A DNA stretch of 42,299 nucleotides from Chiloscyllium plagiosum (taxonomy: Eukaryota), in the NCBI RefSeq assembly GCF_004010195.1, contig NC_057755.1, forward strand, positions 11,738,580 through 11,780,878, written 5' to 3'. The notes under the pieces were generated by a model, which ran no database searches, was not told where the DNA came from, and saw nothing but the letters and a program-made list of their open reading frames with translations. Positions 5,500 through 41,541 of this stretch are shown here, one piece after another (the stretch's first letter is position 1; each line of letters begins with the position of its first letter). The position numbers were made by a program, and so were the translations under genes.

Positions 5500-6250
5500 T
5501 CAGTGATCACCCAGTGTTGGAGGAGGAAGGTTGTGGGTCGTCCTCGTCATTCTGCTCATGTGTCTGGCCAAAATGGTCAGTAACACATCCAGACAGCAAG
5601 CAATTGAGGAGTCACTAAACCCAACTGTCTGGTCTCTTCTGTGGTTCCACTCATGTTTAGGTGTCCTTGGAGAGGCATTCATCAGCACTTGAGACCTTCC
5701 ATGACCGGAGGGCACTGCTGGAGCTGGAGATAGCCTTTAACAAAGGGGCTAAAAGGGTAGAGTGGGGACCAGAACATCGGGTCCACTTGGAACTAAAGAC
5801 CACCTTGACACCAGCCCCCACCTTTAGATTGCACAATATGCCCCGATCATTCATGTGCACTACAATGTGTATAGAGACTTCCAAAATGGTGTAGTGTTAC
5901 AAGAGTATGATGGGGACATGAGACCAATAGCTTATTATTCACTCAACGGCTCCCAGTAGCCCAGGGTATGGCAAGATGTGCAGTGCATTAATCTGTGTAA
6001 CATCAATGGTGAAAGTATGTGAGCTAGTAACTATATCAGCGCACATAGCATTGCATGTGACATATGTTGGCAGACCTGCTCAACACCAGGAAATTGAAAT
6101 CTGTCTCGGACAGCAGAACAGTTGCATAGGAAGCAATCCTAATATCTTCAGACAGATCAGTTCAGATAATGAGGGATATCAGAGGTACCAGTATCTGCTG
6201 GAGGTTTATTTGTTTGTTTGGAGGCCACACCAGATAAAGAAACACAAGGG
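5500..6250 (+). mobile_element. Endogenous retrovirus pol relic, 5' part (RT end/tether)
   Basis: Broken frames give VEWGPEH..LKTTLTPAPTF and VLQEYDGDMRPIAYYS..PVAQGMARC, typical of the RT connection/degenerate RNase H. Confidence 0.65.
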
Positions 6251-6254
6251 TCAG

Positions 6255-9200
6255 GATCAAGAAAAAAAAAGACAATCACAACTGTGATTGAAGAACAGAC
6301 AAAGGAAGCACTGAGTGAGGTAAGAGCAGGAGAGAGAGAGTGAGAAAGAAACCTACATTGCTAACTGACAGAGCAGTGAACCTGCGTAGTTACTGCCTTT
6401 GCTGTTCAATTCATGTATCGCTGGACATCGGAGTGCATCTGGGAAAATTAACAAACCGTGAAATTCACAACTGATCTTGGAGGAACCTGTTTGGGAGAGG
6501 ACACAGCACCACTTTAATCAATATCTGGATTACTCCCAGTGCTACGAACTAGTGAGGGCAGGAAAAGGAGGATAGAGCAGATGAATGCATGGCTGAGGAG
6601 TTGGTGTGCAGGAAAAGGATTCATATTTTTGGATTATTGGAAGCTCTTTTGAGGTAGAAGTAACCTGTACAAGAAGAATGGATAGCACTTAAATTGGACT
6701 AATATATTGGCAGGGAGATTTGCTAGAGCTGCACGGGATGATTTAAACTAGTAAGGTGGGAGGATGGGACCCAGGGAGATAGTGAGGAAAGAGATCAGTC
6801 TGAGACTGGTACAGTTGAGAACAAAGACGATTCAAACAGTCAGGGAAAGCAGGGACAAAGCAGAGAACAAAGTAGGACTGATAAATTAAACTGCATTTAT
6901 TTCAATGCAAGAAGCCTAACAGTGAAGGCAGATGAACCCAGGGCATGGTTAGGAACATGGGACTGAGATATCATAGCAATTATACAAACATGACTCAGGG
7001 ATGGGCAGGACTGGCAGCTTAATGTTCCAGCATACAAATGTGACAGGAAAAACAGAAAGGGCAAGAAAGGAGGGGGAGAGGCGTTTTTGATAAGGGATTG
7101 CATTATAGCTGTACTGAGGGAGAATATTCCTGGAAATACATCCAGGTTATTTGGGTGGAACTGAGAAATAAGAAAGGGATGATCACCTTATTGGGATTGT
7201 ATTGTAGACCCCCTAATAGTCAGAGGGAAATTGAGAAACAAATTTGTAAGGAGATCTCTGTTATCTTTAAGAATAGTAGGGTGGTTATGGGAGGGGATTT
7301 TAACTTTCCAAATGTAGACTGGGACTGCCGTAGTATTAAGGTTTTAGATGGAGAGGAATTTGTTAAGTGTGTACAAGAAAATTTTCTGATTCAGTGTGTG
7401 GATGTACCTACTAGAGATGATGCAAAACTTGACCTACTCTTGGGAAATAAGGGCAGGCAGATGACTGAAGTGTCAGTGAGGGAGCACTTTGGAGCTAGCG
7501 ACCATAATTCTGTTTTAAAATAGTGATGGAAAAAGATAGACCAGATCTAAAAATTGAAGTTCTAAATTGGAGAAAGGCTAATTTTTATGGTATTACTCAA
7601 GAACTCTCATAAACTGATTGAGGGCGGATGTTCACAGGTAAAAGGATGGCTGGAAAATGGGAAGCCTTCAGAAATGAGATTACGAGAGTTCAGAGAAAGT
7701 ATATTCCTGTGACAATGAAAGGAAAGGCTGGTAGGTAAAGGGAATGCTGGATGACTAATGAAATTGAGGGTTTGGTTAAAAAAAAAGAAGAAAGTATATG
7801 TCAAGTGTAGACAGGATAGATCGAGTGAATCCTTAGAAGGACTCTACTTAAGGGAGAAATCAGGAGGGCAAAAAGGGGACATGAGATAGCTTTGGCAAAT
7901 AGAGTTAAGGAGAATCCAAAACGTTTTTACAAATACATTAAGGACAAAAGGGTAACTAGGGAGAGAATAGGTCCCCTCAAAGATCAGCAAGGCGGCCTTT
8001 GTGTGGTGCCGCAGGAGATGGGGGAGATACTAAATGAGTATTTTGCACCAGTATTTACTGTGGAAAAGAACATGGAAGATATAGAATATAGAGAAATACA
8101 TGGTGACATCTTGAAAAATGTGCATATTACAGAGAAGGAAGTACTGGATGTCTTGAATCACATAAAAGTGGATAAATCCCCAGGACCTGATCAGATGTAC
8201 CCTAGAACTCTGTGGGAAACTAGGGAAGTAATTGCTGGACCTCTTACTGAGATATTTGTATCATTGATAGTCACTGGTGAGGTGCCGGAAGACTGGAGGT
8301 CGGCTAACATGGTGCCACTGTTTAAGAAAAGTGGTCAGGGCAAGCCAGGGAACTATAGACCGGTGAGCCTGATGTCGGTGGTGGGCAGATTGTTGGAGGG
8401 AATCCTGAGGGACAGGATACACATGTATTTGGAAAAGCAAGGACTGATTTTGTGCGTGGGAAATCATGTCTCACAAACTTGATTGAGTTTTTTGAGAAGT
8501 AACAAACAGGATTAATGAAGGCAGAGCAATAGATGTGATCTATATGGACTTCAGTATGGCATTCGGCAGGGTTATATCTCATGGAATACAGGGAGAACCT
8601 GCCATTTGGATACAGAACTGGATCAAAGGTCGAAAACAGAGGATGGTGGTAGAAGGTTATTTTTCAGACTGGAAGCCACAAGAATCGGTGCTGGGTCCAC
8701 TACTTTCCATCATTTATATAAATGATTTGGATGTGAGCATAAGAGGTATAGTTAGTAAGTTTGCAGATGACACCAAAATTGGAGGTGTACTGGACAGCAA
8801 AGAGGGTTACCTCAGATTGCAACGGGATCTTGATCAGATGAGCCAATGGGCTGAGAAGTGGCAGATGGAGTTTAATTTAGATAAATGTGAGGTGCTGCAT
8901 TTTGGAAAAGTAGATCAGGGCAGGGCTTATAAACTTAATGGTAAGGTACTGGGGAGTGTTGCTGAACAAACAGACCTTGGAGTGCAGGTTCATAGCTCTT
9001 TGAAAGTGAAGTTGCAGGTAGATAGGAAAGTGAAGAAGGCATTTGGTATGCTTTCCTTTATTGGTCAGAGTGTTGAGTACAGGAGTTGAGAGGTCATGTT
9101 GCGACTGTACAGGACGTTGGTTAGGCCACTGTTGGAATATTGTGTGCAGTTCTGGTCTCCTTCCTATTGGAAAGATGTTGTGAAACTTGAAAGGGTTCAG

Positions 9201-9652
9201 AAAATATTTACAAGGATGTTGTCAGAGTTGGAGGATTTGAGCTTTTGGGAGAGGTAGAATAGGCTGGGGTTGTTTTCCCTGGAGCGCGGAGGCTGAGGAG
9301 TGACCTTATAGAGGTTTATAAAATCATGAGGCGCATGGATAGGATAAGTCGGCAAAGTCTTTTTCCTGGGATGGGGGAGTCCAGAACTAGAGGGCATAGG
9401 TTTAGAGTGAGAGGGGAAAGATATAAGAGAGACCTAATGGGCAACTTTTTCACACAGAGGGTGGTACATATATGGAATGAGCTGACAGAGGAAATGGTAG
9501 AGGCTAGTACAATTGCAACATTTAAAAGGCATCTGGATGGGTATATGGGCCAGGTCTGGCAGGTGGGACTAGATTGGGTTGGGATATCTGGTCAGCATGG
9601 ACGAGCTGGACCGAAGGGTCTGTCTCTATGCTGTACATTTCTATGACTCTAC
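6255..9652 (+). mobile_element. CR1 LINE (5'UTR, ORF1 mostly deleted, degraded ORF2 APE+RT, 3' tail)
   Basis: MGGDFNFPNVDW and SDHN endonuclease motifs, KSPGPD, NYRPVSL, SKFADDTK RT motifs, ctatgactcta tail. The 5' part matches 17595-17770. Confidence 0.93.
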
Positions 9653-9654
9653 AC

Positions 9655-10400
9655 TCCAACTAAATGTTTTATATGGATAGAACATGGCAATATACATGTA
9701 TTTCTGGTATAACGTGATGATTGCATTCCTGTGCAACCATGCGCTGTAGAAAATCGCTACACCTGTATAGTAGAAAGTTCGCGCTATCCAAATAAAGTCA
9801 ATCGTTTTATGGCCAGTTTATGTATTGAAGCATTATACCAGAAATCCCTATCCAGATGGACTATCACATACTTGGTGGACAGTGCTAACTAGAGATGGGA
9901 GAGTGGGAACCAAAGAGGAGCTGAAGAAAAATATCTTGGCTCAGGTGGCCAAACTGACTGCTCTTATAGAAGCATTGGAACTGAAGAAAGGGAAAAAAAG
10001 TTGACATCTATGCAGAGATGCTATCTATGATTCTGGGGTACTGCATGATAGCTTTGAAGGCTTGGTAGAGCTCGCCATGGTTAAAATAAAGGCTCATCAG
10101 AGAATGGAAATTGAGGAACACGGGAAATACACTAGCAGATGAGGCAGCTAGACAAGTGGCCGAGAAAGAAACACCAGTCCCAGTTTCCGCTGCAATAAAA
10201 GGACTATGTGAAATGAATATTCCAAAGGTTCAGTATAAAGTTGAAGAACAAGAGCAATGGATGAAGAAATCGCCAAAACCACAGGAGGCACCAGGATAAT
10301 AAAGGATTAGTAATGAAGTGGGGAGGGATGTCTCCAAACACTGTACAATCCTGGAACACCAAAGTGAAATATTCCACCAGCGAAGACCTAAAATCCTATG
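9655..10400 (+). mobile_element. Endogenous retrovirus pol relic, 3' part (retroviral RNase H)
   Basis: Frameshifted motifs AQVAKLTALIEALELKKGKK-VDIY, YDSGVLHD, LAMVKIKAH, GNTLADEAARQVA. Confidence 0.75.
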
Positions 10401-16981: not shown

Positions 16982-19900
16982 GACTTGTTGAAGAAGTGCT
17001 GAAAATTTCAGTGGACAGAGGAATGTCAAGGTTTGGAAATGTGTTAAACATTGCCCCAGAGTTAGCCACACCTAATTGCTCAAAGCCATTCAAGATGGTT
17101 ATTGATGCAACTGATGTAGTTGTCGGTGCTTTCCTTTTGAAAAATGATGCGTAGGTAGAAAGACCTATTGAGTATTTTTCCAGAAAATTGAATGATCGAC
17201 AAAAATATTCACAAGTAAGACCTTTAGCTTGGTGCCGGCATTGCAATGTTTCAAAATTTATATTACCAGTAATCTGGCTAAGACAGTTTTATATACTGAT
17301 CATATCCTCTGAAAGTTTTTGGAAAAACTTAAATAAAGATACTGAACTGTTTAGATAGAGCTACTTATTGCAGCCAATCCATTTGAAAATTTACATAATT
17401 GAATTCTGGGTAATCCAAGATGGAGGACGGAAAAAGTTTCTGGCTGTAAGAACTGCACCTTTTTTTGAGGTATTTTAGGTGCTGCAGGTGATTTCCTCGA
17501 ATTTCAGGAGCAGCAATTACTGTTTCATATGCTGTTGCATTGTTTTGGAACTTTGGGGGAAAAAAAGTCAAAACAACAGCAGTTTTAAAAGGGAGAAGAA
17601 CAGACAAAGGAAGCACATGGTGAGGACAGTGCAGGAGAGAAAGAGAAAACCTGCACAGTTACTGCCTTTGCTGTTTTTGAATTCATGTATTGCTGGACAT
17701 CGGAGTGTGTCTGGGAAAATTAACAAACAGACTTTCACAACTAATCTTGGAGGAACCTGTTTTGGCGAAATTCACAACACAAAATCAGATAATTTAATCG
17801 TTTTAAGTCTGTCCAATAGAAAGGCTGTAGTAGTGAGTACTGTGGGTTCGTTCTTGATTATATGTTTTTGGAGATAAGTCTCTTGATTAAACTTAAAATA
17901 TAAGCCATAACTATTCATTTAACCTGGTGCAGTGTTTTGTAGAGGAATAAGACGGTGCTATTTTCTGGGTCTGTAGATTGTGAAGGAGCAAAAATGGCCT
18001 TTGCAGTGATATGTACTTCTTGTCAGATGTGGGAGTTTAAAGAGAGTTTAAGGGTTACTGCGAATTATATCTGCCATAAATGCTGTTGGATGCGAATCTT
18101 ATCAGATCGAATGGATCGGTTAGAGAGACAGTTAGAAGCGATGAGGAATTTGCAACAGCAACAGTATGTGATGGATGGCAGTTATAGGAAGGGGGGAATG
18201 TCTCAGATACAGTCACAGAGATGGGTTAACTCCAGGAAGGGTAAGAGGGGTAGGCACCTAGGGCAGGAGTCTTTTGTGGATACACCCATTTCAAACAGGT
18301 ATGCTGTTTTGGAAAATGTAGGGGGTGATGGATTCTCGGGAACGTAGCATGAACAGCCAAGTTCCTGGTATTGAGACTGGCTCTAATGCAATGAGGGGTA
18401 CGTCGGCTTCCAAAAGATCAATTGTGTTAGGGGATTCTGTAGTCTGAGGTAAAGACAGACGTTTCTGTGGCCAGCAGAGAAAAAGCAGAATGGTGTGTTG
18501 TTTCCCTGGTGCCTGGATCAAGGATATTCACAACTAATCTTGGAGGACTGTTGGGCGAAGTTCACAGCACAGAATCAGATAAGTTAATTGTTTAAGTCTG
18601 TCCAAGAGAGAGGCTGCAGTAGTGAGTATAGTGGATTCTTTCTTGTTTTTGGAGATAAGTCTCTTGATTAAACTTAAAATATAAGCCATAGCTATTAATT
18701 TAACCTGGGGCAGTGTTTGTAGAGGAATAAGATGGTGTTATTTTCTGGGTCTGTAGATTGTGAAGGAGCAAAAATGGCCTTTGCAGTGATATGTACTACT
18801 TGTCAGATGTGGGAGTTTAAAGAGAGTTTAAGGGTTACTGCGGATTATATCTGCCATAAATGCTGTAGAATGCGAACCTTATGAGATCAAGTGGATCGGT
18901 TGGCGAGACAGATAGAAGCGATGAGGAATTTGCAACAGCAACAGTATGTGATGGATGGCAGTTATAGGAATGGGAGAAAGTCTCAGATAAGTCACATAGA
19001 TAGGTTAACTCCAGGAAGGGTGAGAGAGATTGACACCTAGGGCAGGATTCTTTTGTGGATATACCCATTTCAAACAGGTATGCTGTTTTGGAAAATGTTC
19101 AAACAGGTATGCTGTTTTGGAAAATGTAGGGGGTGATGGATTCTCAGGGAACGTAGCACGAATAGCCAAGTTCCTGGTATTGAGACTGGCTCGAATGCAA
19201 TGAGGGGTACGTCGGCTTCCAAAAGATCAATTGTGTTAGGGGATTCTGTAGTCAGAGGTACAGACAGACGTTTCTGTGGTCAGCAGAGAAAGAGCAGAAT
19301 GGTGTGTTGTTTCCCTGGTGCCAGGATCAAGGATGTCTCAGAGAGGGTGCAGAATGTTCTCACGGGGGAGAGGGGCCAGCAGGAGGTCATTGTCCACATT
19401 GGAACCAACGATATAGGAAGAGAAAAGGTTGAGACTCTGAAGGGAGATTACAGAGAGTTTGGCAGAAATTTAAAAAGGAGGTCCTCAAGGGTAGTAATAT
19501 CTGGATTACTCCCAGTGCCACGAGCTAGTGAGGGCAGGAATAGGAGATAGAGCAGATGAATGCATGGCTGAGGAGCTGGTGTATGGGAGAAGGATTCACA
19601 GTTTTGGATCATTTGAGGTAGAAGTGACCTGAACAAGAAGGACGGATTGCACTTAAATTGGAAGGGGACTAATATACTGGCAGGGAAATCTGCTAGAACT
19701 GCTTGGGAGGATTTAAGGTGGAGGGGGAGGTGGGACCCAGGGAGATAGTGAGGAAAGAGATCAGTGAGACTGGTACAGTTGAGAACAGAAGTGAGTCAAA
19801 CAGTCAGGGCAGGCAGGGCAAGGTAGGACTAATAAATTAAACTGCATTTATTTCAATGCAAGGGGCCTAACAGGGAAGGCAGATGAACTCAGGGCGTGGT

Positions 19901-21068
19901 TAGGAACATGGGACTGGGATATCATAGCAATTACAGAAACACGGCTCAGGGATGGGTAGGACTGGCAGCTTAATGTTCCATGATACATATGCGACAGGAA
20001 GGATGGAAAGGGAGGCAAGAGAGGAGGGGGAGTGGCATTTTTGATAAGGGATAGCACTATTGCTGTGCTGAGGGAGGATATTTACAGAAATACATCCAGG
20101 GAAGTTATTTGGATGGAACTGAGAAATAAGAAAGAGATGATCACCTAGTATGGATTGTATTATAGACCCCCTAATCGTCAGAGGGAAATTGAGAAACAAA
20201 CTTGTCAGGCGATCTCTGCAATCTGTAAGAATAATAGGGTGGTTATGGTAGGGGATTTAAACTTTCCAAACATCGACTGGGACTGCCATAATGTTAAAGG
20301 TTTAGGTGGAGAGGAATTTCTTAAGTGCGTACAAGACAATTTTCTGATTCAGTATGTGGATGTACCTACTAGGGAAGGTGCAAAACTTGACATACAAGTC
20401 ACCTGGGCAGGTGACTGAGGTGTCAGTGGGGGAGCACTTTGGGGCCAGCAACCATAATTCTATTTGTTTTAAATTAGTGATGGAAAAGGATAGACCAGAT
20501 CTAAAAGTTGAAGTTCTAAATTGGAGGAAGGCCAATTTTGATGTATTAGGCAAGAACTTTCGAAAGCTGACTGGAGGCAGATGTTGGCAGGGAAAAGGAC
20601 ATCTGGAAAATGGGAAGCCTTCAGAAATGACATAATAAGAATCCAGAGAAAGTATATTCCTGTCAGGGTGAAAGGGAAGCTGGTAGGTATGGGGAATGCT
20701 GGATGACTAAAGAAATTTAGGGTTTGGTTAAGAAAAAGAAGGAAGCATATGTCAGGTATAGACAAGATAGATCGAGTGAATCCTTCGAAGAGTATATAGG
20801 AAGTAGGAGTATACTTAAGAGGGAAATCAGGAAGGCAAAAGGGGACATGAAATAGGGTTGGCAAATAGAATTAAGGAGAATCCAAAGGGTTTTTACAAAT
20901 ATATTAAGGACAAAAGGGTAACTTGGGAGAGAATAGGGCCCCTCAAAGATCAGCAAGGCGGTCTTTGTGTGGAGTCGCAGAAAATGGGGGAAGACGCTAA
21001 ATGAATATTTTGCATCAGTATTTAATGAGGAAAAGGATATGGAAGATATAGGCAGTAGGGAAATAGAT

Positions 21069-21217
21069 ATGTTGCTGGAAAAGCGCAGCAGGTCAGGCAG
21101 CATTCAAGGAGCAGGAGAATCGACGTTTCGTGCATAAACCCTTCTTTAGGAATCAGTTTCCAGCAACACATTTTTCAAGCACTGATCTCCAGCATCTGCA
21201 GTCCTCACTTTCTCCCT
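21069..21217. mobile_element. Fold-back Penelope-derived mini-element, copy 1
   Basis: 14-bp TSD GTAGGGAAATAGAT at 21055-21068 and 21218-21231; degenerate hammerhead motif on the minus strand at 21118-21153. Confidence 0.85.
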
Positions 21218-21844
21218 GTAGGGAAATAGATGGTGACACCTTACAAAATGTCCAGATTACAGAGGAGGAAGTGCTGGATGTCTTGAAACGGTTAAAAGTG
21301 GATAAATCCCCAGGACCTGATCAGGTGTAACCAGGAACACTCTGGGAAGCTAGAGAAGTGATTGCTGGGCCTCTTGTTGAGATATTTGTATCATCAATAT
21401 TCACAGGTGAAGTGCCGGAAGACTGGAGGTTGGCAAAGGTGGTGCCACCTTTTAAGAAGGGCGGTAAAGACAAACCAGGGAAGTATAGACCGGTGAGCCT
21501 GACCTTGGTGGTGGGCAAGTTGTTGGAGGGAATCCTGAGGGGCAGGATGTACATGTATTTGGAAAGGCAAGGACTGATTCGGGATAGTCAACATGGTTTG
21601 GTACATGGGAACTCATGTCTCACAAACTTGATTGAGTTTTTTGAAGAAGTAACAAAGAAGATTGATGAGGGCAGAGCGGTAGATGTGATCTATATGGATT
21701 TCAGTAAGGCGTTCGACAAGGTTCCCCATGGGAGACTGATTAGCAAGGTTAGATCTCATGGAATAAAGGGAAAACTAACCATTTGGATACAGAACTGGCT
21801 CAAAGGTAGAAGACAGAGGGTGGTGTGGAGGGTTGTTTTTCAGA

Positions 21845-22205
21845 NNNNNNNNNNNNNNNNNNNNNNNNNNNNNNNNNNNNNNNNNNNNNNNNNNNNNNNN
21901 NNNNNNNNNNNNNNNNNNNNNNNNNNNNNNNNNNNNNNNNNNNNNNNNNNNNNNNNNNNNNNNNNNNNNNNNNNNNNNNNNNNNNNNNNNNNNNNNNNNN
22001 NNNNNNNNNNNNNNNNNNNNNNNNNNNNNNNNNNNNNNNNNNNNNNNNNNNNNNNNNNNNNNNNNNNNNNNNNNNNNNNNNNNNNNNNNNNNNNNNNNNN
22101 NNNNNNNNNNNNNNNNNNNNNNNNNNNNNNNNNNNNNNNNNNNNNNNNNNNNNNNNNNNNNNNNNNNNNNNNNNNNNNNNNNNNNNNNNNNNNNNNNNNN
22201 NNNNN
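21845..22205. other. Assembly gap (361 N) inside the CR1 RT
   Basis: Run of n. Confidence 1.
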
Positions 22206-22891
22206 GTTCAGAAAAGATTTACAAGGTTGTTGCCAGGGTTGGAGGATTTGAGCTATAGGGAAAGGCTGAACAGGCTGGGGCTGTTTTCCCTGGAGCGTCG
22301 GAGACTGAGGAGTGACCTTATAGAGGTTTACAAAATTGAGGGACATGAATAGGGTAAATAGGTAAAGGGTCGGGGAGTCCAGAACTAGAGGGCATTGACT
22401 TAGTGTGAGAGGGGAAAGATATAAAGGAGACCTACGGGGCAACTTTTTCACGCAGAGGGTAGAACGTGTGTGGAATGAGCTGCTAGAGGAAATGGTGGAG
22501 GCTGGTACGATTGCAACATTAAAGAGGCATTTGGATGGGTATATGAATAAGAAGGGTTTGGAGGGATATGGGCCGGGTGCTGGCAGGGACTAGACTGGGT
22601 TGGGATATCTGGTCGGCATGGACAGGTTGGACCGTAGGGTCTGTTTCCATGCTGTACATCTCTATGACTCTATTAGTGGCAGGACAAGGGAACCTAATTG
22701 CCGATGCGTTGTCACAACTTCGATGAGGCATTCTATGGCAGGGAAAATGGATTGAAATAAACTGTACTTGTGAATGTTTGCATGAATAGAGTCACTGTAA
22801 CGTGTATGTATTGTAGTCTAATAAGGGAAGGCTAAAGGTTTTTAAAAATGAATCCATACATTGATGGTTCATTCTTTTTAAAGGGTGGAGG

Positions 22892-23487
22892 TAGGACGGT
22901 GCTAGCCTTTATGAAGTGTGTTTTTTCCTTTTTTTATAAAGAAAGGTTAAGACAGAGGTATTAAGCAGTCTGCTTAAAGCCAGTAGACAGCTTATGAGGC
23001 CTTGAGTTTTGTTTTAAAGTTAGAACAATAGAAGCAGCCTGAATGCCTGACTCCCACAGTAAAAGGATTTTTAGTTTTAGCATTTTGCAGTTGCTGGCAT
23101 CTTAAGCTGGATGTGAAAGCCCTTATTCCTTTTTCTATGACAGCTAAATGCTGGAGTTCTCTTCCTGCTGCTAGAATTGCATGTGAGATAATCTATTTTA
23201 CTGAATTTGCCTTTGCCAAGGGTGTGTTTATCGGATATTACTGTATTGGAACAGTTACTATTTAGTAGTTAAATAATCTATTCTTATATTAAATTTTGAG
23301 CTCGTCAGATTATTCTAATTTCCTCTTTCTTTCATTATATTTTAACCATTGTGTATGAATAAAATATGTTTTTCGTCAAGACTGGTAGTTTGACCGATCG
23401 AATTGCATCTAGAACACAATACCTGGCACATGCCTTCAAAATAAGGAAAAATTAAAGAGTAGACTGGGTTTGAGCTCGTTCACAACA
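22892..23487 (+). repeat. 3' LTR of the Gmr1-like element
   Basis: Preceded by the purine tract aaagggtggagg, contains AATAAA at about 23358, ends ACAACA; homologous to the solo LTR at 13957-14564. Confidence 0.72.
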
Positions 23488-27329: not shown

Positions 27330-27496
27330 TTTTTGGTTGGAATGAAAGGCAAAGATGAAGCCATGGCCATTGGCGGACACTGGTCTCCCTCTTTGGATGG
27401 ACCTAATCCTGAGACTGACCCTTCAGTATTGATTAGGACTGCTATCCGATGTTGTAAGGCCCTGACGAGCATTGACTTGAGTGGTTGCACACAGTG
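27330..27496 (+). CDS. CCAR1: CCAR1 internal coding exon (3rd), 167 nt, DBC1/Nudix-like domain
   Basis: gtcttgcag|TTT acceptor, TG|gtaagt donor. Encodes FLVGMKGKDEAMAIGGHWSPSLDGPNPETDPSVLIRTAIRCCKALTSIDLSGCTQ(W). Confidence 0.96.
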
Positions 27497-28322
27497 GTAA
27501 GTAATACTTCAGTTACAGGGCAGAGCCTTATAGTATAACACTAAGATTCTGTTTTCTGTTATATTTATGATTCGAGTCTTAACTGTTTGCGCTGTTGTTT
27601 TCTCGCCCAGCAGCCAACCACATTCCAGGTAAAAAATACATGACGTCGTTCTGCTAATTCTACACTTGCGGCAACCCTTATGTGGCAATGCATGTCTCAT
27701 GTAGTGAGAGATGTCATTATTTCATAAGAATGACATTGGAGAGACATAAAGCATTTTAGATATAATTCATTGTTCTGAATGTGTACTTAATATACATGTA
27801 TAAATGCTGTAAATCTGTATTACTATTTCATGCCAATGTGCTATATATGTGGTGTGCCTTGAAGAAAAGTCATGCGTGGAGAGGATGTCGCCACTGGGAT
27901 GAATAATTAGGATGTTCAATTGATAATAGAATTGTTTTCCTTTTTTTGTGTAAATAAACTTTCAGTGATGCCACGCAAGTTCTTCTGAATTGTACAGCCA
28001 GTGTCATTTAACTGCAAGGCATTAAAGCAGTGAGTCAATATACAATTTATTTTAAAAAAAGTTTTTTGTTTTGCTTTTCACTACTAGCATCTACCCAAAT
28101 AGATTTGTTACTATCCAATCTTTGGTAATGATGGAACTTTCATTATTATGACTGAGATGTGTGAATTGTTTATTCACCTGCCTGGTGCCTACAGTTGCAG
28201 TTAAGTGATATTGAACAGTGTATATGACGCATTTCTCTAGCTTGATATCCTGCGAGACATTTAGGGTCTATGTGATGTCTGATAGAATTTTCCTTTCCAA
28301 TACACTTCTTCCCTTGCAACAG

Positions 28323-28533
28323 GTACCGTTTTGCAGAGATCCGTTACCATCGCCCCGAGGAGCACCACAAGGGGCGGACGGTTCCAGCCCATGTGGAGAC
28401 CGTGGTTATATTTCTGCCGGATGTTTGGCATTGCCTTCCCACCCGTTCAGAGTGGGAAGCGCTCTCTCGTGGATACAAGCAGCAGCTGGTTGAGAAGCTC
28501 CAAGCTGAACACAAGGAGGCTGATGGAGAACAG
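28323..28533 (+). CDS. CCAR1: CCAR1 internal coding exon (4th), 211 nt, ends at a non-canonical GC donor
   Basis: ttgcaacag|G acceptor completes the TG|G Trp codon. Encodes YRFAEIRYHRPEEHHKGRTVPAHVETVVIFLPDVWHCLPTRSEWEALSRGYKQQLVEKLQAEHKEADGEQ. The 3' end is placed by homology (EADGEQ then D/EEEEKDDG), which gives CAG|gcactg. Confidence 0.9.
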
Positions 28534-29301
28534 GCACTGAACGCTAATCCTTTTCCATTTCCGCTTCTCACAGGCACAGGGACACCCACAAAAAAAGTGC
28601 ATCACATACATACAGATCAAGTAACGGGCTCTTTTTATGAGCAGTGCACACATTTGAGAAGACATAGATGCAAAGCTACAGTAACTGGTAACATAGCTCC
28701 CAGCTTAGAGTCCGAGCCGACTTCCTTTCATCAATTCGGTCTCTCAGAATGAATGACCTGCAATTTCCTCAAAAGAAATGAACCAAAACCAGTACATTTG
28801 GAATCTAAGCTTTGTTTTCTTCAAATGATAGTTACTTGTATTCAGATTTCGCTCTTTCATACGCAGCAAGAAAATCAATTCCTGCTGGAAGCTTGTCACC
28901 AGTTGTTGAGTTGGGCAGGCATTGTTAGCTGTTTACAGAAATTTCTACTTTCCAAATTTTCCATATCCCCTTTCTCTTGCTTTCTTTTAACTCTAGTATG
29001 TTCCTCTTACCTACACAACCATTGGATATGCACAAACCTTTGAAAGATATTTGATTTGCAGGTCAGTTGGTTGAGCCACAGTTTCGTGCAGTGTGGGGTG
29101 TGTGGAGCAAACTCTTTGATAGCGAATATGTCTGGGGGGCTTGTACCTATTGAGAGGGAATGAGAACACACACTGTTTGGCCGCCAGGGACCATCAGTGT
29201 CTGCAGCCCTTGAATCCTTTTGTTTGATGTCATTGATCACCTTTTTGTGTTCCACAGATCTGGCTTTGATTGGCTGATGAGTGGCATGTGATCAGTTAAA
29301 A

Positions 29302-29324
29302 TGTGTGTGTGTGTGTGTGTGTGT
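29302..29324 (+). repeat. (TG)11 microsatellite
   Basis: Direct reading. Confidence 0.95.
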
Positions 29325-29497
29325 TTACATAGGAATGAACTGTTCTATTCAGTAACATTGAGGAGGAGTCAATCTGAGGGGCTGTTGTGACCTTTGCTAC
29401 TTGCACGGATCGGCAACTCTTGTTTCAAAAAATGAGTGAATACATTTCCAGGCATTCTCCAAATATTGCTGACTATTCCTGTTTTTTATTTGAACAG

Positions 29498-29581
29498 GAA
29501 GAGGAGGAAAAGGATGATGGGGAGAGCAAAGAAATTTCTACACCTACTCACTGGTCGAAGCTAGATCCAAAGACAATGAAA
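29498..29581 (+). CDS. CCAR1: CCAR1 internal coding exon (5th), 84 nt
   Basis: ttgaacag|GAA acceptor, AAA|gtaagc donor. Encodes EEEEKDDGESKEISTPTHWSKLDPKTMK. Confidence 0.96.
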
Positions 29582-29669
29582 GTAAGCAAGTTTTAAAATT
29601 TTGCTAAAGACAAAATTACTTCACTTTTGAAGCAAAAACAAGAAGGCAGATTACTACGTGATTGGCTGT

Positions 29670-30435
29670 AAATTGGAAGAGGAGATTGTGCAGCAGGACA
29701 TGGGTGTCCTGTGCAAGGTAAGCATGCAGGTGAAGCAGACAATAAGGAAGGCAAATGGTATGTTGGCCTTCGTTGCGAGAGGTTTGGAGTACAGGACCAG
29801 GAATGTGGTGTTGCAGTTATGCAGGGCATGGGTGAGGCAGTGTCTGAAATATTGTGTGTAGTTTGGTCTCCTTTTCTGAGGAAGGTTGCTGTTGCTCTCT
29901 AGGGAGTGTAGTGCAGATTTACCAGGCTGATTCAGAGGATGGTGGGACTGATTTACGAGGAGAGGTTGACTAGATTAGGGTTGTTTTTGCTGCAGTTCAG
30001 ATAAATGAGGGGGGATCTCATTTATCACTCAAGAGGGTTTGAGCTATAGGGAGACGCTGAATAAACTGGGCCTATTTTCACTGGAGCATGGGAGGCTGAG
30101 GTGTGACCTAATTGAGGTTTATAAAATCATAAGGGTAAATAGATAAGGTCTTTTCCCTGGAATGGGGGAGTCCAGAGCTCGAGGGCATAGGTTTAGGGTG
30201 AGTGGGGAAAGATTTTAAAGGGACCAGAGGGGGAACTTTTTCGTGCAGAGGGTGGTGCGTGTAAGGAATGACCTGCCAGAGGAAGTGACGGAGGCTGTAA
30301 AGGCATCTGGATAGGTTTTATGAATGGGAAATGTTCATAGTGATATGGGCCAAATGTTGGAAAATGGGACTATATTAATCTAGTTGGCATGGACGAGTTG
30401 GAATGAAGGGTCTGTTCCCATGCTGTACACCTCTA
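29670..30435 (+). mobile_element. Two abutting CR1 ORF2 3' fragments
   Basis: KANGMLAFVARGLEYRT..LKYCV; a second fragment from about 30030 ends at a ccatgctgtacacctcta tail. Confidence 0.85.
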
Positions 30436-34779: not shown

Positions 34780-37500
34780 TAAAAGTAAGACTGATGAGTT
34801 AATGGTGTGGATTGGCAATGGAAGTATGATTTAGTTGCCATAACAGAAACACAGTTGAGGGAAAGGCTGGACTGACAACTCAGTATTCCAAGGTATAGGA
34901 TCTTAAGGCGACACACAGGTGGGTGTAAAAAGGGTGGTGATGTAGCACTATTAATTAAGGAGTCAATTATTGCATTAAGGAGAGATGATGTATCGGAAGG
35001 GCCCTCAAATGAGGTTTCAGGGTAGATTTTAGGAATATTAAGGGGCCATCTACTTGGAGTGTATTACAGACCCGCAAAGAATCGTGAGCAATAGATGTGC
35101 AAATGTGTAGACAGTTCACAGAGATGTGTAAGAGTAATACAGAAGTAATAATTACCTAGGGGATTTCAGCTTTGCCGACATGGATTTCAAAAGATGACTT
35201 TGCATTGGGAGTAGACAGATTTTATGAAAATGAAGCTGGATCTGGCCCCAGTAGGCTTGAAACAGCTCCTTGCGGGTAAATACAGTAGAGCAATGAGTGG
35301 CATTCAAAAAGGAGCTGGGGAGAGTGCAGGTCCAAAATGTACCTTTTAGAGGAAAATAGCAGCAATAAATTCAGAGAACCCTGCATGTCTGGGACACTTC
35401 AGGTGTGGATAAAGAAAAAGAATAGGGCTTTAAGCAAGTTCAAAGGGAGCAATTCAACTGCAGCCCTGGAGGAATACAGGGCATGCAGGGGGGACTTAAT
35501 AAAGCAATCAGAAGAACAAGAAGGGAAGATGAAGAAGGACTTGTGAACAGCATTAGGAAGAATCATAAGATATTTTATCAATACATTAAAGGGAAGAAGC
35601 TAACCAGACTAAGACTAGGGACCAAGGGCAACCTGTCTGTGAAGCTGCAAGATACTGGAAGGGGTTGAATGAATTCCTCTCTTTGGTCTTTACTCTTGGA
35701 AATGAGTTTAGGTACGGAATTCAGGAAAAGAGACTCTGAGGAACTCGCACAGTTTGACAGGAAATGGGGAGGTATTGGATGCTCTGTTGGGCTTAAAAGG
35801 AGAGAAATCCCTCACCCAGGTGAATTGCATCCTAGGCTGCTGTGGGAGGCGAGGCAGGAAATTGCAGGGCCTGTAAAACAATTTTTTAATTCCTCTCTGG
35901 ACGCAGGAAGTGTCAGAGGACTGGAGGATGGCTAATGTGGTTCCACATTTTAAGAAGGATGGTAGGGATGAGCCAGGAAATTACAGACTGGTGAGTCTCG
36001 CATCAGTGGAAGGGAAACTATTGGAGAAAATTCTGAAATAGTGAATTAATGCCCACTTGGAAAGGCATGGGGAAGTTAGGAATAGTTAGCATGGTTTTGT
36101 CAGAGGGAAGTCACGCCTATCAAATTTGTTAGAATTTTTTGAAAATGGTATCATAGGTTGGATGAGGGAAGTTCAGATTGGTGTAGTTTTTATGAATTAT
36201 AGCAAAGCTTTGACAAGGTCCCACGTGGGAGACTGATTGAAAAGATTAAAGCACACAGAATTGAAGGGAACTTGGTGTAATGGATCAGAAATGGCTTAGT
36301 AATAGGATACAAAAGGTAGTGGTAGAAGGCTGTTTGAGTAACTGGAGGCCAATGTTTAGCGGTCTACGGCAAGGATCTGTTCTGGGGCCCTTATTGTTTG
36401 TTATACATAAATTATATAGATGAAAATGTATGGGAAATGTCAAGCAAATTTGTAGATGAAACCACGATTGGTCGAGTGGTTTATAATGAAGATGATGATT
36501 GTAGGTTATAGGAAGTTATAAATGGATTAGTCAGATTAGTGGCAGATGGAATTAACCCTCATAAATGTGAGATTATACACTTTTGGAAGAAGAAACAAGG
36601 TGAGGAAGTATTTAATGAACACTGGATAGCTTAGAGGAACAGAGGAATACTGGGGTAATTATTCAGAAGTCCATGTGAATGGGATAGTTAAGAGGATGTA
36701 TTGGACACTTGCTTTCATCAGTTGTGGCATGGAGTATAAGAGCAAGAAGTTAATGTTGGAGTTGTACAGAACATTGGCCAGGCCACAACTGTGCAGTTCT
36801 GGTCACCTCACTTCAGAAAGGATGTGATAGCGCTAGAGAGGTTACAAAGGAGGTTCACCAGGATGTTGCCACGGATAGTGAAATTGAGCTAAAGGACAGA
36901 TAGGCTTGGTTGTTTATTTTTAGAGCAGAGAAGACTGAGAGGGGATGATTGAGGTGTGTAAGATTATGGGGGTTGTGGACAAGGTGAATAGACAGCAGAG
37001 TCAAAAAGTATGGCACTGGAAAAGCAAGCCAGTCAGGCAGCATCCAAGGAGCAGGAGGGTTGATGTTTCGAGCATAAGCACTTCATCAGGAATGATGAAT
37101 AAGCTTATGCTGAAAACGTCAATGCTCTTGCTCCTCAGATGCAGCCTGACTGGCTGTGCTTTTCCAGCACCGTACTTTTTGACTCTGATCTCCAGCATCT
37201 GCAGTCCTCACTTTCTCCTGAATACAGAGCAGCTGTTTTAGGGTAAAGGGGAGGAGATTCAGAGAGGATTTAGGGGGTAAGAAAAGTGGGAATCTGGAAT
37301 GCACTGCCTGGGAAGGTAGTGGAGACTGGAAACCTTCCAACCTTTTAAAAAATGTATTTGGATGAGCACTTTGAGTATCGTAACATTTAAAGATGTGGGA
37401 TAAGTGCGGGAAATTGAGATTAGTTTACTTGTAACTGGTACTTTTGTTGGTGCAGACGTGATGAGGCAAAGGGCCTTTTCTACGTTTTATGAATTTATGA
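34780..37500 (+). mobile_element. Old CR1 ORF2 (APE+RT to 3' end), heavily degraded
   Basis: YDLVAITETQL, GVYYRP, FYQYIKGK, HPRLLWEARQEIAGP, ctttgacaaggtcccac, VQFWSPHFRKD. Confidence 0.88.
36999..37218. mobile_element. Fold-back Penelope-derived mini-element, copy 4 (long hairpin)
   Basis: Inverted arms at about 36996-37088 and 37093-37187. TSD TGAATAGACAGCAG/TGAATACAGAGCAG (12/14) at 36985-36998 and 37219-37232. Confidence 0.85.
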
Positions 37501-37807: not shown

Positions 37808-40800
37808 TTAAAAATCACACAACATCAGGCTGTAGTGTTGTGTTTAATTGGAAGCACACTAGCTTTCGGAGCATCGCTCCTTCATCAGGTGGTTGTGGAG
37901 GACACAATTGTAAGACACAGAATTTATAGCAAAAGTTTACAGTGTGATGTAACTGAAATTATACATTGAAAAATACTTGACTGTTGCGTCTTTCATCTGT
38001 TCGAATACCATGATAGTTTCACTTAATTCATGTGTAAATTACAAAACTTTTTTTAAAAAGTTGCATTCTCAGGTTAACTGTAACAATTGGTGTTAACTAG
38101 ACAATATGTTGAAGGTGTTAGCTCCCTGTGGGCTCTGTCTATGCCATAATGTTTAGACTGTTTCTAATCTAAAACGTGAGATAACAGAGTCTTGCATGAA
38201 TTCATGCAGTTTTTGAGCAAAGTACAATGTAACTCTGCAAGTACAAATTCACCCCACAAATGTGTGTGCGTGAGTGTAGAGTGGTCTAGGTCTCTCAGAG
38301 GGGGTGTATGTGTGGGTGTGTATGTGTAGTGCAATGGGTGTTGCAATGTAGTGTGAAATGTCCCAGTTGAGGCCCTCCCTATGGGTACGGAACTTAGCTA
38401 TCAGCCTCTGCTTGGCCACATCGGAAAGATCCCAAAAGGATCACGGATCATGAACCCACTCAAGTCAATCTACAACAGAGACTACGCAGAGAAACTTTGC
38501 CACCGTACCTCTTGCAAGCTTCTCAATCATCTTGTGCACCAAATCCACAGCAGGCACCACAACCTTGAAATTCACATGGAGTCCACACTCTCATCACGAC
38601 CTTGCCAAACAGACAAGGTGACAAAACCACACCACTTACATGCACACCAAGAACAAAAAGCTGGAGAAACTTGGCATTCCTACCAGTAGTAGCAAAGCCC
38701 ATCCTGGCACCACAGTAGATAACATTATCACTGCGGAGAAGTCTATGAACAACTTATCGGACCACGCCCTTCGGCTGGAAGAGATTGAAGTCCTGAGCAG
38801 GGGTCTCAACTTCTGCCCCACCATCAAAATAGACCCATTGGTTTTTGCAGCAGACACTGAGGAGTTCATCAGACGAATGAGACTCTGGGAATTCTTTCAA
38901 GGTGCCAGTAGTGATCCCAACGAGCCCACTGATGAACTGGAACAGTCATCACAGGGATCTGTAGAGAAGCGACCAAAGAAGGTGTCAACTTGGACCCCAC
39001 CGGAGGGCCGCTGCCCTGGGCTTGACATGTATGCTCAAACCGTCAGGAAGTATATAAATGCCAGATTCATCAGCCGTGCCCACAAGATAGAGCAAAACAT
39101 CACATGTTCACAACGCAACTCCATCCAGGCTCTCAAAACTAATCACAACATCGTCATCTAATCAGCAGATAAAGGAGGAGCCATTGTCATTCAGAATAGA
39201 ACAGATTACTGCAAGGAAGTGTACTAGCAACTAAACAACCAGGAACACTACAGGCAACCACCAGCTGATCCGACCAAAGAACACCACCCGTGAATTAAAC
39301 ACATTGATCAGGACTTTGGATCCAGTCCTTCAGAGTTCCCTACGCGTCCTCAAGCCACGTACTTCTCGTGTAGGCGACTTCTACTGCCTTCCAAAGGCAG
39401 TCCCATCGTATCAGGCAATGGGACCCTGTGTGAGAATCTCTCTGGCTATGTTGAAGGCTGGATCCCCAGCTTCTGTCGCAACACTATGGATTTCTTACAG
39501 AAACTCAGCACCCACGGACCAGTCGAACCAGGAACATTCCTCGTCACAATGGATGTTTCAGCACACTTCACCAGCATCCCCCACAATGATGGCATCGTGG
39601 CATCAGCCTCCGTACTCAACACCAACAACTGCCAATCTCCAAACACCGTCCTACAACTTATCCGCTTTATCCTCGATCACAACGTCTTTACCTTTGACAG
39701 CCAGTTCTTCATCCAGACACACAGAACCGCTATGGAGACCAAATTTGCACCCCAATATGCCAACATCTTTATGCACAGGTTCGAACAAGACTTCTTTTCT
39801 ATGCAGGACCTCCATCCAACATTATACACCAGGTACATTGATGACATTTTCTTCCTCTGGATTCATGGCGAGGATAAAACTACATAGTGATATGTAGTTT
39901 TAACTACAAGTTTCATCCTGCCATCAAACTCACCATGGGCTGCTCTCGACTATCTGTCTCATTCTTGGACATATGCATCTCCATCAAGGATGGATACCTC
40001 AGCATCACACTCTACCGCAAACCCACAGGCAACCTCATAACGCTAGACTTCTTCAGCTTCCACCCAAAACATATTAAAACAGCCATCCCCTATGGACAAA
40101 CCCTACGCGTACACCGGATCTGTTCAGATGAGGAGGAACGTGATAGGCACCTGGAAGTACTCAGGGATGCCCTCATAAGAACTGGGTATGATGCTCGGAC
40201 ATGTTCCGACATGCCACAACAAGGAACTGTAATGACCTCCTCGGGAGACAGACACGTGCTGCAACTGACAGGGTACCCTTCGTTGTCCAGTACTTCCCAG
40301 GAGCTGAAAACCTACGCCATGTTCTTCGTGACCTGCAACACATTATCAATGAGGATGAGCACCTCGGCAAAACTACAGGTGACCCATTGCACTACACACA
40401 CACACAGACCCAGTTGCACACATATACATATACGTTTGTGGGGTGAATTTGTACTTGCAGAGTTGCATTGTACTTTGCTCAAAAACTGCATGAATTCATG
40501 CAAGACTCTGTTATCTCACGTTTTAGATTAGAATCAGTCTAAACATTATGGCACAGACAGAGAACACAGGAGACTAACACCTTCATCATATTGTCTAGCT
40601 AACACCAATTGTTAGAGTTAACCTGAGAATGCAACTTTTTTTAAAAAAAGTTTTATACATGAAAGAAATGAAACTATCGTGGTATTCAAACAGATGAAAG
40701 ACTCAACAAACAATCGAGGTATTTTCAATGTATAATTTCATTGTGTCCTCCACAACCACCCGATAAAGGAGCGTGCTCTGAAAGCTAGTGTGCTTCCAAT

Positions 40801-41355: not shown

Positions 41356-41541
41356 GTTAACGATCTTCGAAAAGAATTGGAAAGTAGGAATCAAAGCTCG
41401 AAGGGGTTGAAATCCCAGTTGATAGCCCGGCTAACAAAACAACTAAAAACTGAGGCGGAGAAAGAAGAGCAGAAGGAATCTGAGAAATCTGAAAGAGAAG
41501 ATGATGACGAGGACGATAAAAGATCTGAAGATGACAAAGAG
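41356..41541 (+). CDS. CCAR1: CCAR1 internal coding exon (6th), 186 nt, SAP domain and acidic stretch
   Basis: cttttctcag|GTT acceptor, GAG|gtacca donor. Encodes VNDLRKELESRNQSSKGLKSQLIARLTKQLKTEAEKEEQKE...DDKE. Confidence 0.96.

Follow-up and report, generated by a model that had tools for sequence, protein, structure and literature searches.

The 42,299-nucleotide (nt) stretch of contig NC_057755.1 analysed here (positions 11,738,580 to 11,780,878, forward strand; hereafter the window) comes from the shark Chiloscyllium plagiosum and carries part of CCAR1, including a 211-nt exon with an unusually weak GC 5′ splice site. We propose that this exon is an ancient switch, skipped into nonsense-mediated decay (NMD) by virtue of its weak donor, to which vertebrates have added a U2AF/U2 decoy placed directly after the donor; for this reading as a whole we estimate a probability of roughly 55%. 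Its older component, the weak-donor switch between inclusion and skipping to NMD, we hold with high confidence.

Six CCAR1 exons were located in the window by tblastn (Table 1). The closest protein match comes from Chiloscyllium punctatum and shows 100% identity across the 28323-28533 exon and a further 29 codons of the following intron. A preliminary description of this DNA had placed the end of the exon at 28533, at CAG|GCACTG, and protein comparison bears out both the position and the reality of the GC donor: among 139 proteins with the exon end E[AV]DGEQ, in 118 the residues of the next exon (D/E...) follow at once, and the other 21 extend into the intron (AL...). The GC donor is used in all 10 chondrichthyan CCAR1 models, one gene prediction excepted. 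A downstream GT as the true, constitutive exon end was considered and ruled out, being used by the gene prediction P0002 alone (at 28621). Joining of GC to AG is seen both in protein junctions and in a comparison of cDNA with genomic sequence (invertebrate loci L001 and L002), identifying a U2-type GC-AG intron. Chondrichthyans also carry a second, CCAR1-like paralogue (P0157-P0211, in sharks and rays).

An NMD switch at this exon, as claimed in the preliminary description, does exist in human and mouse, but the isoform on record omits the whole exon and does not use 28574. Human exon 13 (hg38 68756273-68756483) has 211 nt and follows an exon of 167 nt (PMC8361881), both lengths being equal to those in shark. 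Its skipping to NMD (hg19 chr10:70515127-70517134) was reported with a percent-spliced-in value (PSI) of 0.78 in control, 0.50 under emetine and 0.96 under rapamycin (PMC5389481), and the mouse Ccar1 skip isoform is an NMD marker that increases on SMG6 PIN loss (PMC12896539). A rise under NMD or translation block comes from these human and mouse papers only (PMC5389481, PMC8361881, PMC12896539). Since the exon length is 3n+1, skipping yields a premature stop and NMD, as shown for human and mouse and predicted for shark, where the skip-frame stop (29562-29564) precedes later junctions and a later CCAR1 exon in the window, at 41356. The skip product is present in 20 of 264 CCAR1 proteins, including mammalian ones; the supplement of PMC6547761 contains no CCAR1 row. 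Transcripts that are spliced upstream and retain the intron of the GC donor were found in pig (P0226), goby (P0140) and one further locus (L035).

The weak GC donor apparently extends across the Bilateria, a point missing from the preliminary description. Metagenome contigs were scanned with the upstream exon, giving 80 loci, of which 20 distinct ones entered the donor table. The other 60 were set aside as near-duplicates (9; the 4 inspected also have GC), as not reaching the exon (26), as intronless in the region (17) or as lacking the W|Y intron (8; 5 of these have a GT donor farther downstream and 3 are intronless there). In every one of the 20 distinct loci with the W|Y junction, a phase-0 MAG|GCA ends the acidic coding stretch; the loci fall into about 9 lineages, counted on a short, partly resolved tree. 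In nine of them, no phase-0 GT that could be used precedes the read-through stop or lies close to the exon end. With the shark donor added (21 in total), positions -2 to +3 (MAG|GCA) are the only invariant ones; +4 is C, T or G and +5 is T, C or A, and a compensating approach to the consensus elsewhere in the site is absent (+4 A in 0/21, +5 G in 0/21). The upstream GT donors, by comparison, carry +5 G in 35 of 37 cases. Because +4 and +5 vary yet never land on the consensus, this pattern points to selection keeping the GC donor weak at these positions.

The exon length is 3n+1 in 19/19 loci, and a stop soon appears in the skip frame in all 10 loci showing the next exon (the acceptor call in L026 is doubtful). 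The skip product is also encoded by a Logan contig that groups with halictid bees (P0153), and gene models from an annelid, a spider and a beetle continue past the exon end, the read-through beginning with AL. Judged from these sequences, the weak-donor design is apparently common to vertebrates, arthropods and annelid-like animals. Five copepod-like loci (L019, L025, L027, L041 and L080) have no W|Y intron; their GT donors lie in the linker region, at positions of unsure orthology, which may reflect loss of the switch. In six annelid-like loci (L036, L046, L055, L058, L061 and L062), a common motif (TGTACAAAGTTGCAG...TCCAGTCAACAA-like) lies 30-90 nt into the GC intron, for which close kinship may account.

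Directly 3′ of the shark donor lies an element resembling a complete 3′ splice site, and the branch-point match, the pyrimidine tract and the two CAGs were confirmed at the positions reported earlier (Table 1). The branch A is intron position +14, and the two AGs end at +40 and +46; the whole array is packed within 46 nt of the donor, with 26 nt between branch A and AG. By a simple, home-made acceptor score, 28574 reaches 11.5, against 9.2-9.8 in four real acceptors. Six of the 3305 AGs on the + strand attain this score, and only 28574 also has a branch-point match and an AG-free zone; the thresholds were set on 28574 itself, which makes the result a ranking rather than a p-value. With 28574 or 28580 as the acceptor for the exon ending at 27496, the first in-frame stop is the TGA that had been predicted. 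The 8-mer ACAGGCAC occurs only twice on the + strand of the window, spanning the GC donor (28530) and the first intronic AG (28570); the start of the donor is thus repeated right after this AG, and the peptides of tetrapods and sturgeon hint at a third copy. The shark intron (28534-29497) contains neither AATAAA nor ATTAAA, which leaves an intronic last exon unsupported, and Rfam returned a single chance-level match (E 0.69), located outside the element.

Conservation among vertebrates was assessed through read-through proteins (gene predictions, unspliced open reading frames and intron-keeping transcripts), with the shark supplying the sole vertebrate DNA. Each of the peptides from sturgeon, cyprinids, frogs, birds, mole-rat, pig and a monkey starts with ALNANP and then rematches the shark intron, offset by 1-4 nt, in one of the three frames: FPLLTGTG in frame 0, FRFSQAQ in frame 1 or ISASHRHR in frame 2. 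The exact peptide runs comprise 5-8 residues, a length attained in 0/400 random intronic windows per peptide. The goby read-through ends after ALNR, and the coelacanth model departs after ALN. Shark-to-mammal conservation of the adjoining intron, suggested in the preliminary description, is thereby upheld for +1 to +21 and about +24 to +48. Since the intron is matched in three frames and no frame is kept, the element is conserved as RNA and not as protein, and we have little doubt that it is functional as RNA. An isoform with an ALNANPF insertion, also suggested there, did not hold up: the proteins concerned are intron read-throughs in differing frames, and a homologue search with the mole-rat read-through region found only 4 gene predictions and no conserved insertion isoform. 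The CA-rich tract that follows is loosely kept in vertebrates, as His/Thr-rich read-through peptides suggest.

The earlier statement that human CCAR1 contains an ultraconserved element (UCE) was correct for the exon but not for the stretch adjoining the donor. The UCE, uc.285 (hg19 chr10:70,515,991-70,516,222; PMC3626580 supplement), covers 39 nt of the upstream intron with its acceptor and the first 193 nt of the same exon, allowing for an offset between coordinate tables. It stops 18 nt short of the donor, the exon ending at hg19 70,516,240, and the acceptor-like element therefore lies outside it. The published sense primer for uc.285 matches the shark acceptor region at 20/20 positions. Regarding the protein, the description of CCAR1 as a U2-associated splicing factor agrees with its co-precipitation with U2AF2 (PMC12956353). 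CCAR1 sets FANCA splicing, repressing a FANCA poison exon via a 14-nt element just downstream of it, and is intolerant of loss of function (bioRxiv 2023.09.18.557780).

We hypothesize that dropping the exon, with the resulting frameshift, premature stop and message decay, would constitute an old expression switch tuning the level of CCAR1. Inclusion would be held marginal by a strong exon side (MAG|GCA) combined with avoidance of the consensus at +4 and +5. In jawed vertebrates, the branch point, pyrimidine tract and AG begin inside the footprint of the donor itself, and SF1, U2AF and U2 assembling on them may compete with U1 or stall it, producing more skipping and intron retention. A branch point sited too near an upstream donor blocks splicing between the two, and the branch A at +14 falls within that limit. 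Because such a branch point is unable to serve the donor beside it and the U2 and U1 footprints would overlap, binding of SF1, U2AF or U2 should oppose use of the donor. The element would thus most likely be a binding decoy rather than a commonly used acceptor; that this decoy is repressive we consider an even call.

As a partner of U2AF that represses exons, CCAR1 may stabilise the U2AF/U2-bound state and so limit itself. It is the likeliest regulator of the exon, with chances of such negative feedback that we put slightly below even. The most ambitious version, in which CCAR1 would have controlled itself since the bilaterian ancestor by means of a GC donor kept off the +4/+5 consensus and, in jawed vertebrates, CCAR1-stabilised U2AF/U2 would exclude U1 and direct the message to decay through a single-site U1/U2 toggle, seems to us rather doubtful.

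Several observations weigh against this scheme. CCAR1 autoregulation was not found in the literature searched, a term search of PMC11321822 included. The vertebrate conservation of the intron derives from peptides and not from aligned DNA, and the intron-keeping contigs could be ordinary pre-mRNA. Invertebrate donors, that of L002 excepted, were called from sequence, and three loci (L037, L046 and L060) contain a rival phase-0 GT. Moreover, the acceptor-like score after invertebrate GC donors is not above that after control donors (21 vs 37; Mann-Whitney p 0.19; paired p 0.40), nor is a branch-like motif enriched (10/21 vs 14/37 controls); the layout seen in shark recurs in single loci (L022 and L060) and likewise in some controls. 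Given this lack of enrichment, the decoy is unnecessary for the ancient switch, and we claim the element for jawed vertebrates only.

In the preliminary description, 28574 or 28580 was a used alternative acceptor, sterically exclusive with the GC donor and giving its own NMD isoform. Such use would suit the rank of 28574 as the best acceptor-like site among the 3305 AGs, the conservation of the AG and the following bases across vertebrates, and the 26-nt spacing; in addition, NMD of the stop-carrying product and poor downstream donors would hide it from protein sets. We nevertheless regard it as unlikely. The junction of the upstream exon with 28574 occurs in 0/264 CCAR1 proteins, against 20/264 for the skip, although this is a weak negative, because NMD products are rarely annotated and protein sets under-represent them. 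Among the CCAR1 entries examined in two NMD tables, one of them restricted to skipped exons, the skip is the sole event, and a cryptic-exon table has no entry at human coordinates matching 28574 (PMC11632617 supplement). Downstream of the donor, the first GT scoring >2 bits comes only at 29062. Less likely again is that the element is an enhancer rescuing the weak donor. The U-rich tract could recruit TIA1-type factors, or U2AF, and the CA tract hnRNP L, to aid U1. Some help must be needed, since the donor is used in most transcripts (PSI 0.78) despite little U1 match; a pyrimidine-rich stretch follows many invertebrate GC donors, and the shark CA tract is exceptionally CA-rich (top 0.3%). However, an enhancer leaves unexplained why a spaced branch point, an AG and the bases after it are conserved.

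Two further mechanisms concern the donor region itself. Recursive skipping, in which the junction of exons 12 and 13 recreates a GT donor (TG|GTAY) and this rivals the GC donor under control of the exon junction complex, is compatible with the decoy switch but improbable as its replacement. The exon starts with AG|GTAY in 19/19 loci, U1 matches are 4-6/11 at the rebuilt site and 4-7/11 at the GC donor, and the five copepod-like loci without the W|Y intron have a downstream GT donor (position orthology unsure). The competition would resemble that described in PMC6224609, although CCAR1 was not found in the main text of that paper; a strong rebuilt donor is defined there by a MaxEnt of 5.52 or more, and the rebuilt site here was gauged by U1 match counts. 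Yet GTAY is imposed by the Trp-Tyr codons, +5 G is missing from the rebuilt site in 19/19 loci, and the vertebrate element would remain unexplained. The least probable alternative, which we give very little credence, is that the purine-rich end of the exon pairs with the pyrimidine tract in a hairpin hiding the donor, with conserved block 2 kept for pairing. Stems are predicted at 28491-28498/28563-28570 and 28522-28530/28551-28559, with pair probabilities mostly >0.9, but the energy is no better than that of shuffles (z -0.28; z -0.52) and 20 invertebrate loci give no signal (z -1.6 to +1.6).

Among known systems, alpha-tropomyosin exons 2 and 3 are a sterically exclusive pair, with a branch point too near the upstream donor. 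The CCAR1 spacing is 14 nt instead of about 40, and, unlike in alpha-tropomyosin, no CCAR1 exon equipped with a usable donor or an open frame was detected further downstream. The decoy sites of SF3B1 intron 4 (PMC6097662) likewise comprise a strong-looking intronic 3′ splice site that may bind rather than splice, together with intron-keeping transcripts, whereas the CCAR1 element starts at most 10 nt past the donor, in the footprint of U1. UCE-linked NMD autoregulation of SR proteins, SMNDC1 and ARGLU1 shares with CCAR1 a splicing factor, a highly conserved exon region and an NMD isoform; in CCAR1 the trigger is that an essential exon, whose GC donor runs counter to the consensus, is skipped, and the feedback is putative. 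Roughly 1% of introns in human are of the GC-AG kind, and their donors, the GC apart, are on average closer to the consensus (PMC3167603), in contrast to the CCAR1 donor, which avoids the +4/+5 consensus in 21/21 cases. The published exon 13 skip (PMC5389481, PMC8361881, PMC12896539) concerns the same 211-nt exon between 167- and 84-nt neighbours, with the same frameshift; these papers use it as an NMD marker, and the parts examined mention neither the GC donor nor the element nor conservation beyond mammals. Likewise, uc.285 overlaps the same exon but, unlike the element, ends before the donor and has been studied as a cancer transcript.

The exon 13 NMD event and the UCE are thus already in print. 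An account of the CCAR1 GC donor or GC-AG intron was not found in the literature searched, mostly outside subscription papers; neither the anti-consensus GC donor shared among bilaterians nor the vertebrate element abutting it was found there, and both appear to be new. If correct, the proposal would provide both a much-used NMD marker exon and the conserved surroundings of uc.285 with a cis mechanism, and the single-site toggle would sense a U2-associated factor. A donor kept as GC, and free of +4 A and +5 G, in animals ranging from bees to sharks lends itself naturally to studying the recognition of very weak donors and the way in which they stay adjustable, and the region could provide a compact minigene for studying exon repression by CCAR1. 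Since FANCA splicing is set by CCAR1 and the gene is intolerant of loss of function, the donor is also a possible handle to raise or lower the level of CCAR1.

Table 1. Features of the CCAR1 switch region (window coordinates).
Feature	Position	Strand	Remarks and evidence
Upstream exon	27330..27496	+	human exon 12 orthologue; 167 nt, as in human; phase 2 end; GT donor
Frame-shifting cassette exon	28323..28533	+	211 nt (3n+1); human exon 13 orthologue (exon 4 of the preliminary description)
Weak GC 5′ splice site CAG|GCACTG	28531..28539	+	motif position; protein junctions
Conserved intron block 1	28534..28554	+	donor and branch-point match CGCTAAT (28542-28548; branch A 28547); ALNANP(F) read-through peptides
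Pyrimidine tract, CAG 28571-28573 and CAG 28577-28579	28549..28581	+	three-frame peptide match; AG ranking
Conserved intron block 2	about 28557-28581	+	0-4 nt length variation relative to block 1; peptide matches
CA-rich tract 3′ of AG	28574..28623	+	top 0.3% of 4225 50-nt windows
TGA	28638..28640	+	met if 28574 or 28580 served as acceptor
Downstream exon	29498..29581	+	human exon 14 orthologue; skip-frame stop at 29562-29564, before later junctions

The introns flanking the cassette exon are short, with 826 nt (27497-28322) and 964 nt (28534-29497), the human ones having 736 and 810 nt; the neighbouring CCAR1 introns in the window measure 1.4, 22.8 and 11.8 kb. The upstream intron contains a possible frame-preserving microexon at 27611-27628, of 18 nt (or 15 nt, through a NAGNAG), preceded by a pyrimidine tract and CAG and followed by CAG|GTAAAA; it is absent from the CCAR1 proteins compared. 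Elsewhere in the window, broken reading frames at 38357-40531 resemble what we take to be the reverse transcriptase of a Penelope-type retroelement, and fragments at 29631-29974 and 35426-36900 resemble the reverse transcriptase of CR1/L2 long interspersed nuclear elements. The intronic tracts 6001-10000, 18001-23000 and 36001-37000 show a strong G skew, of up to 0.45.
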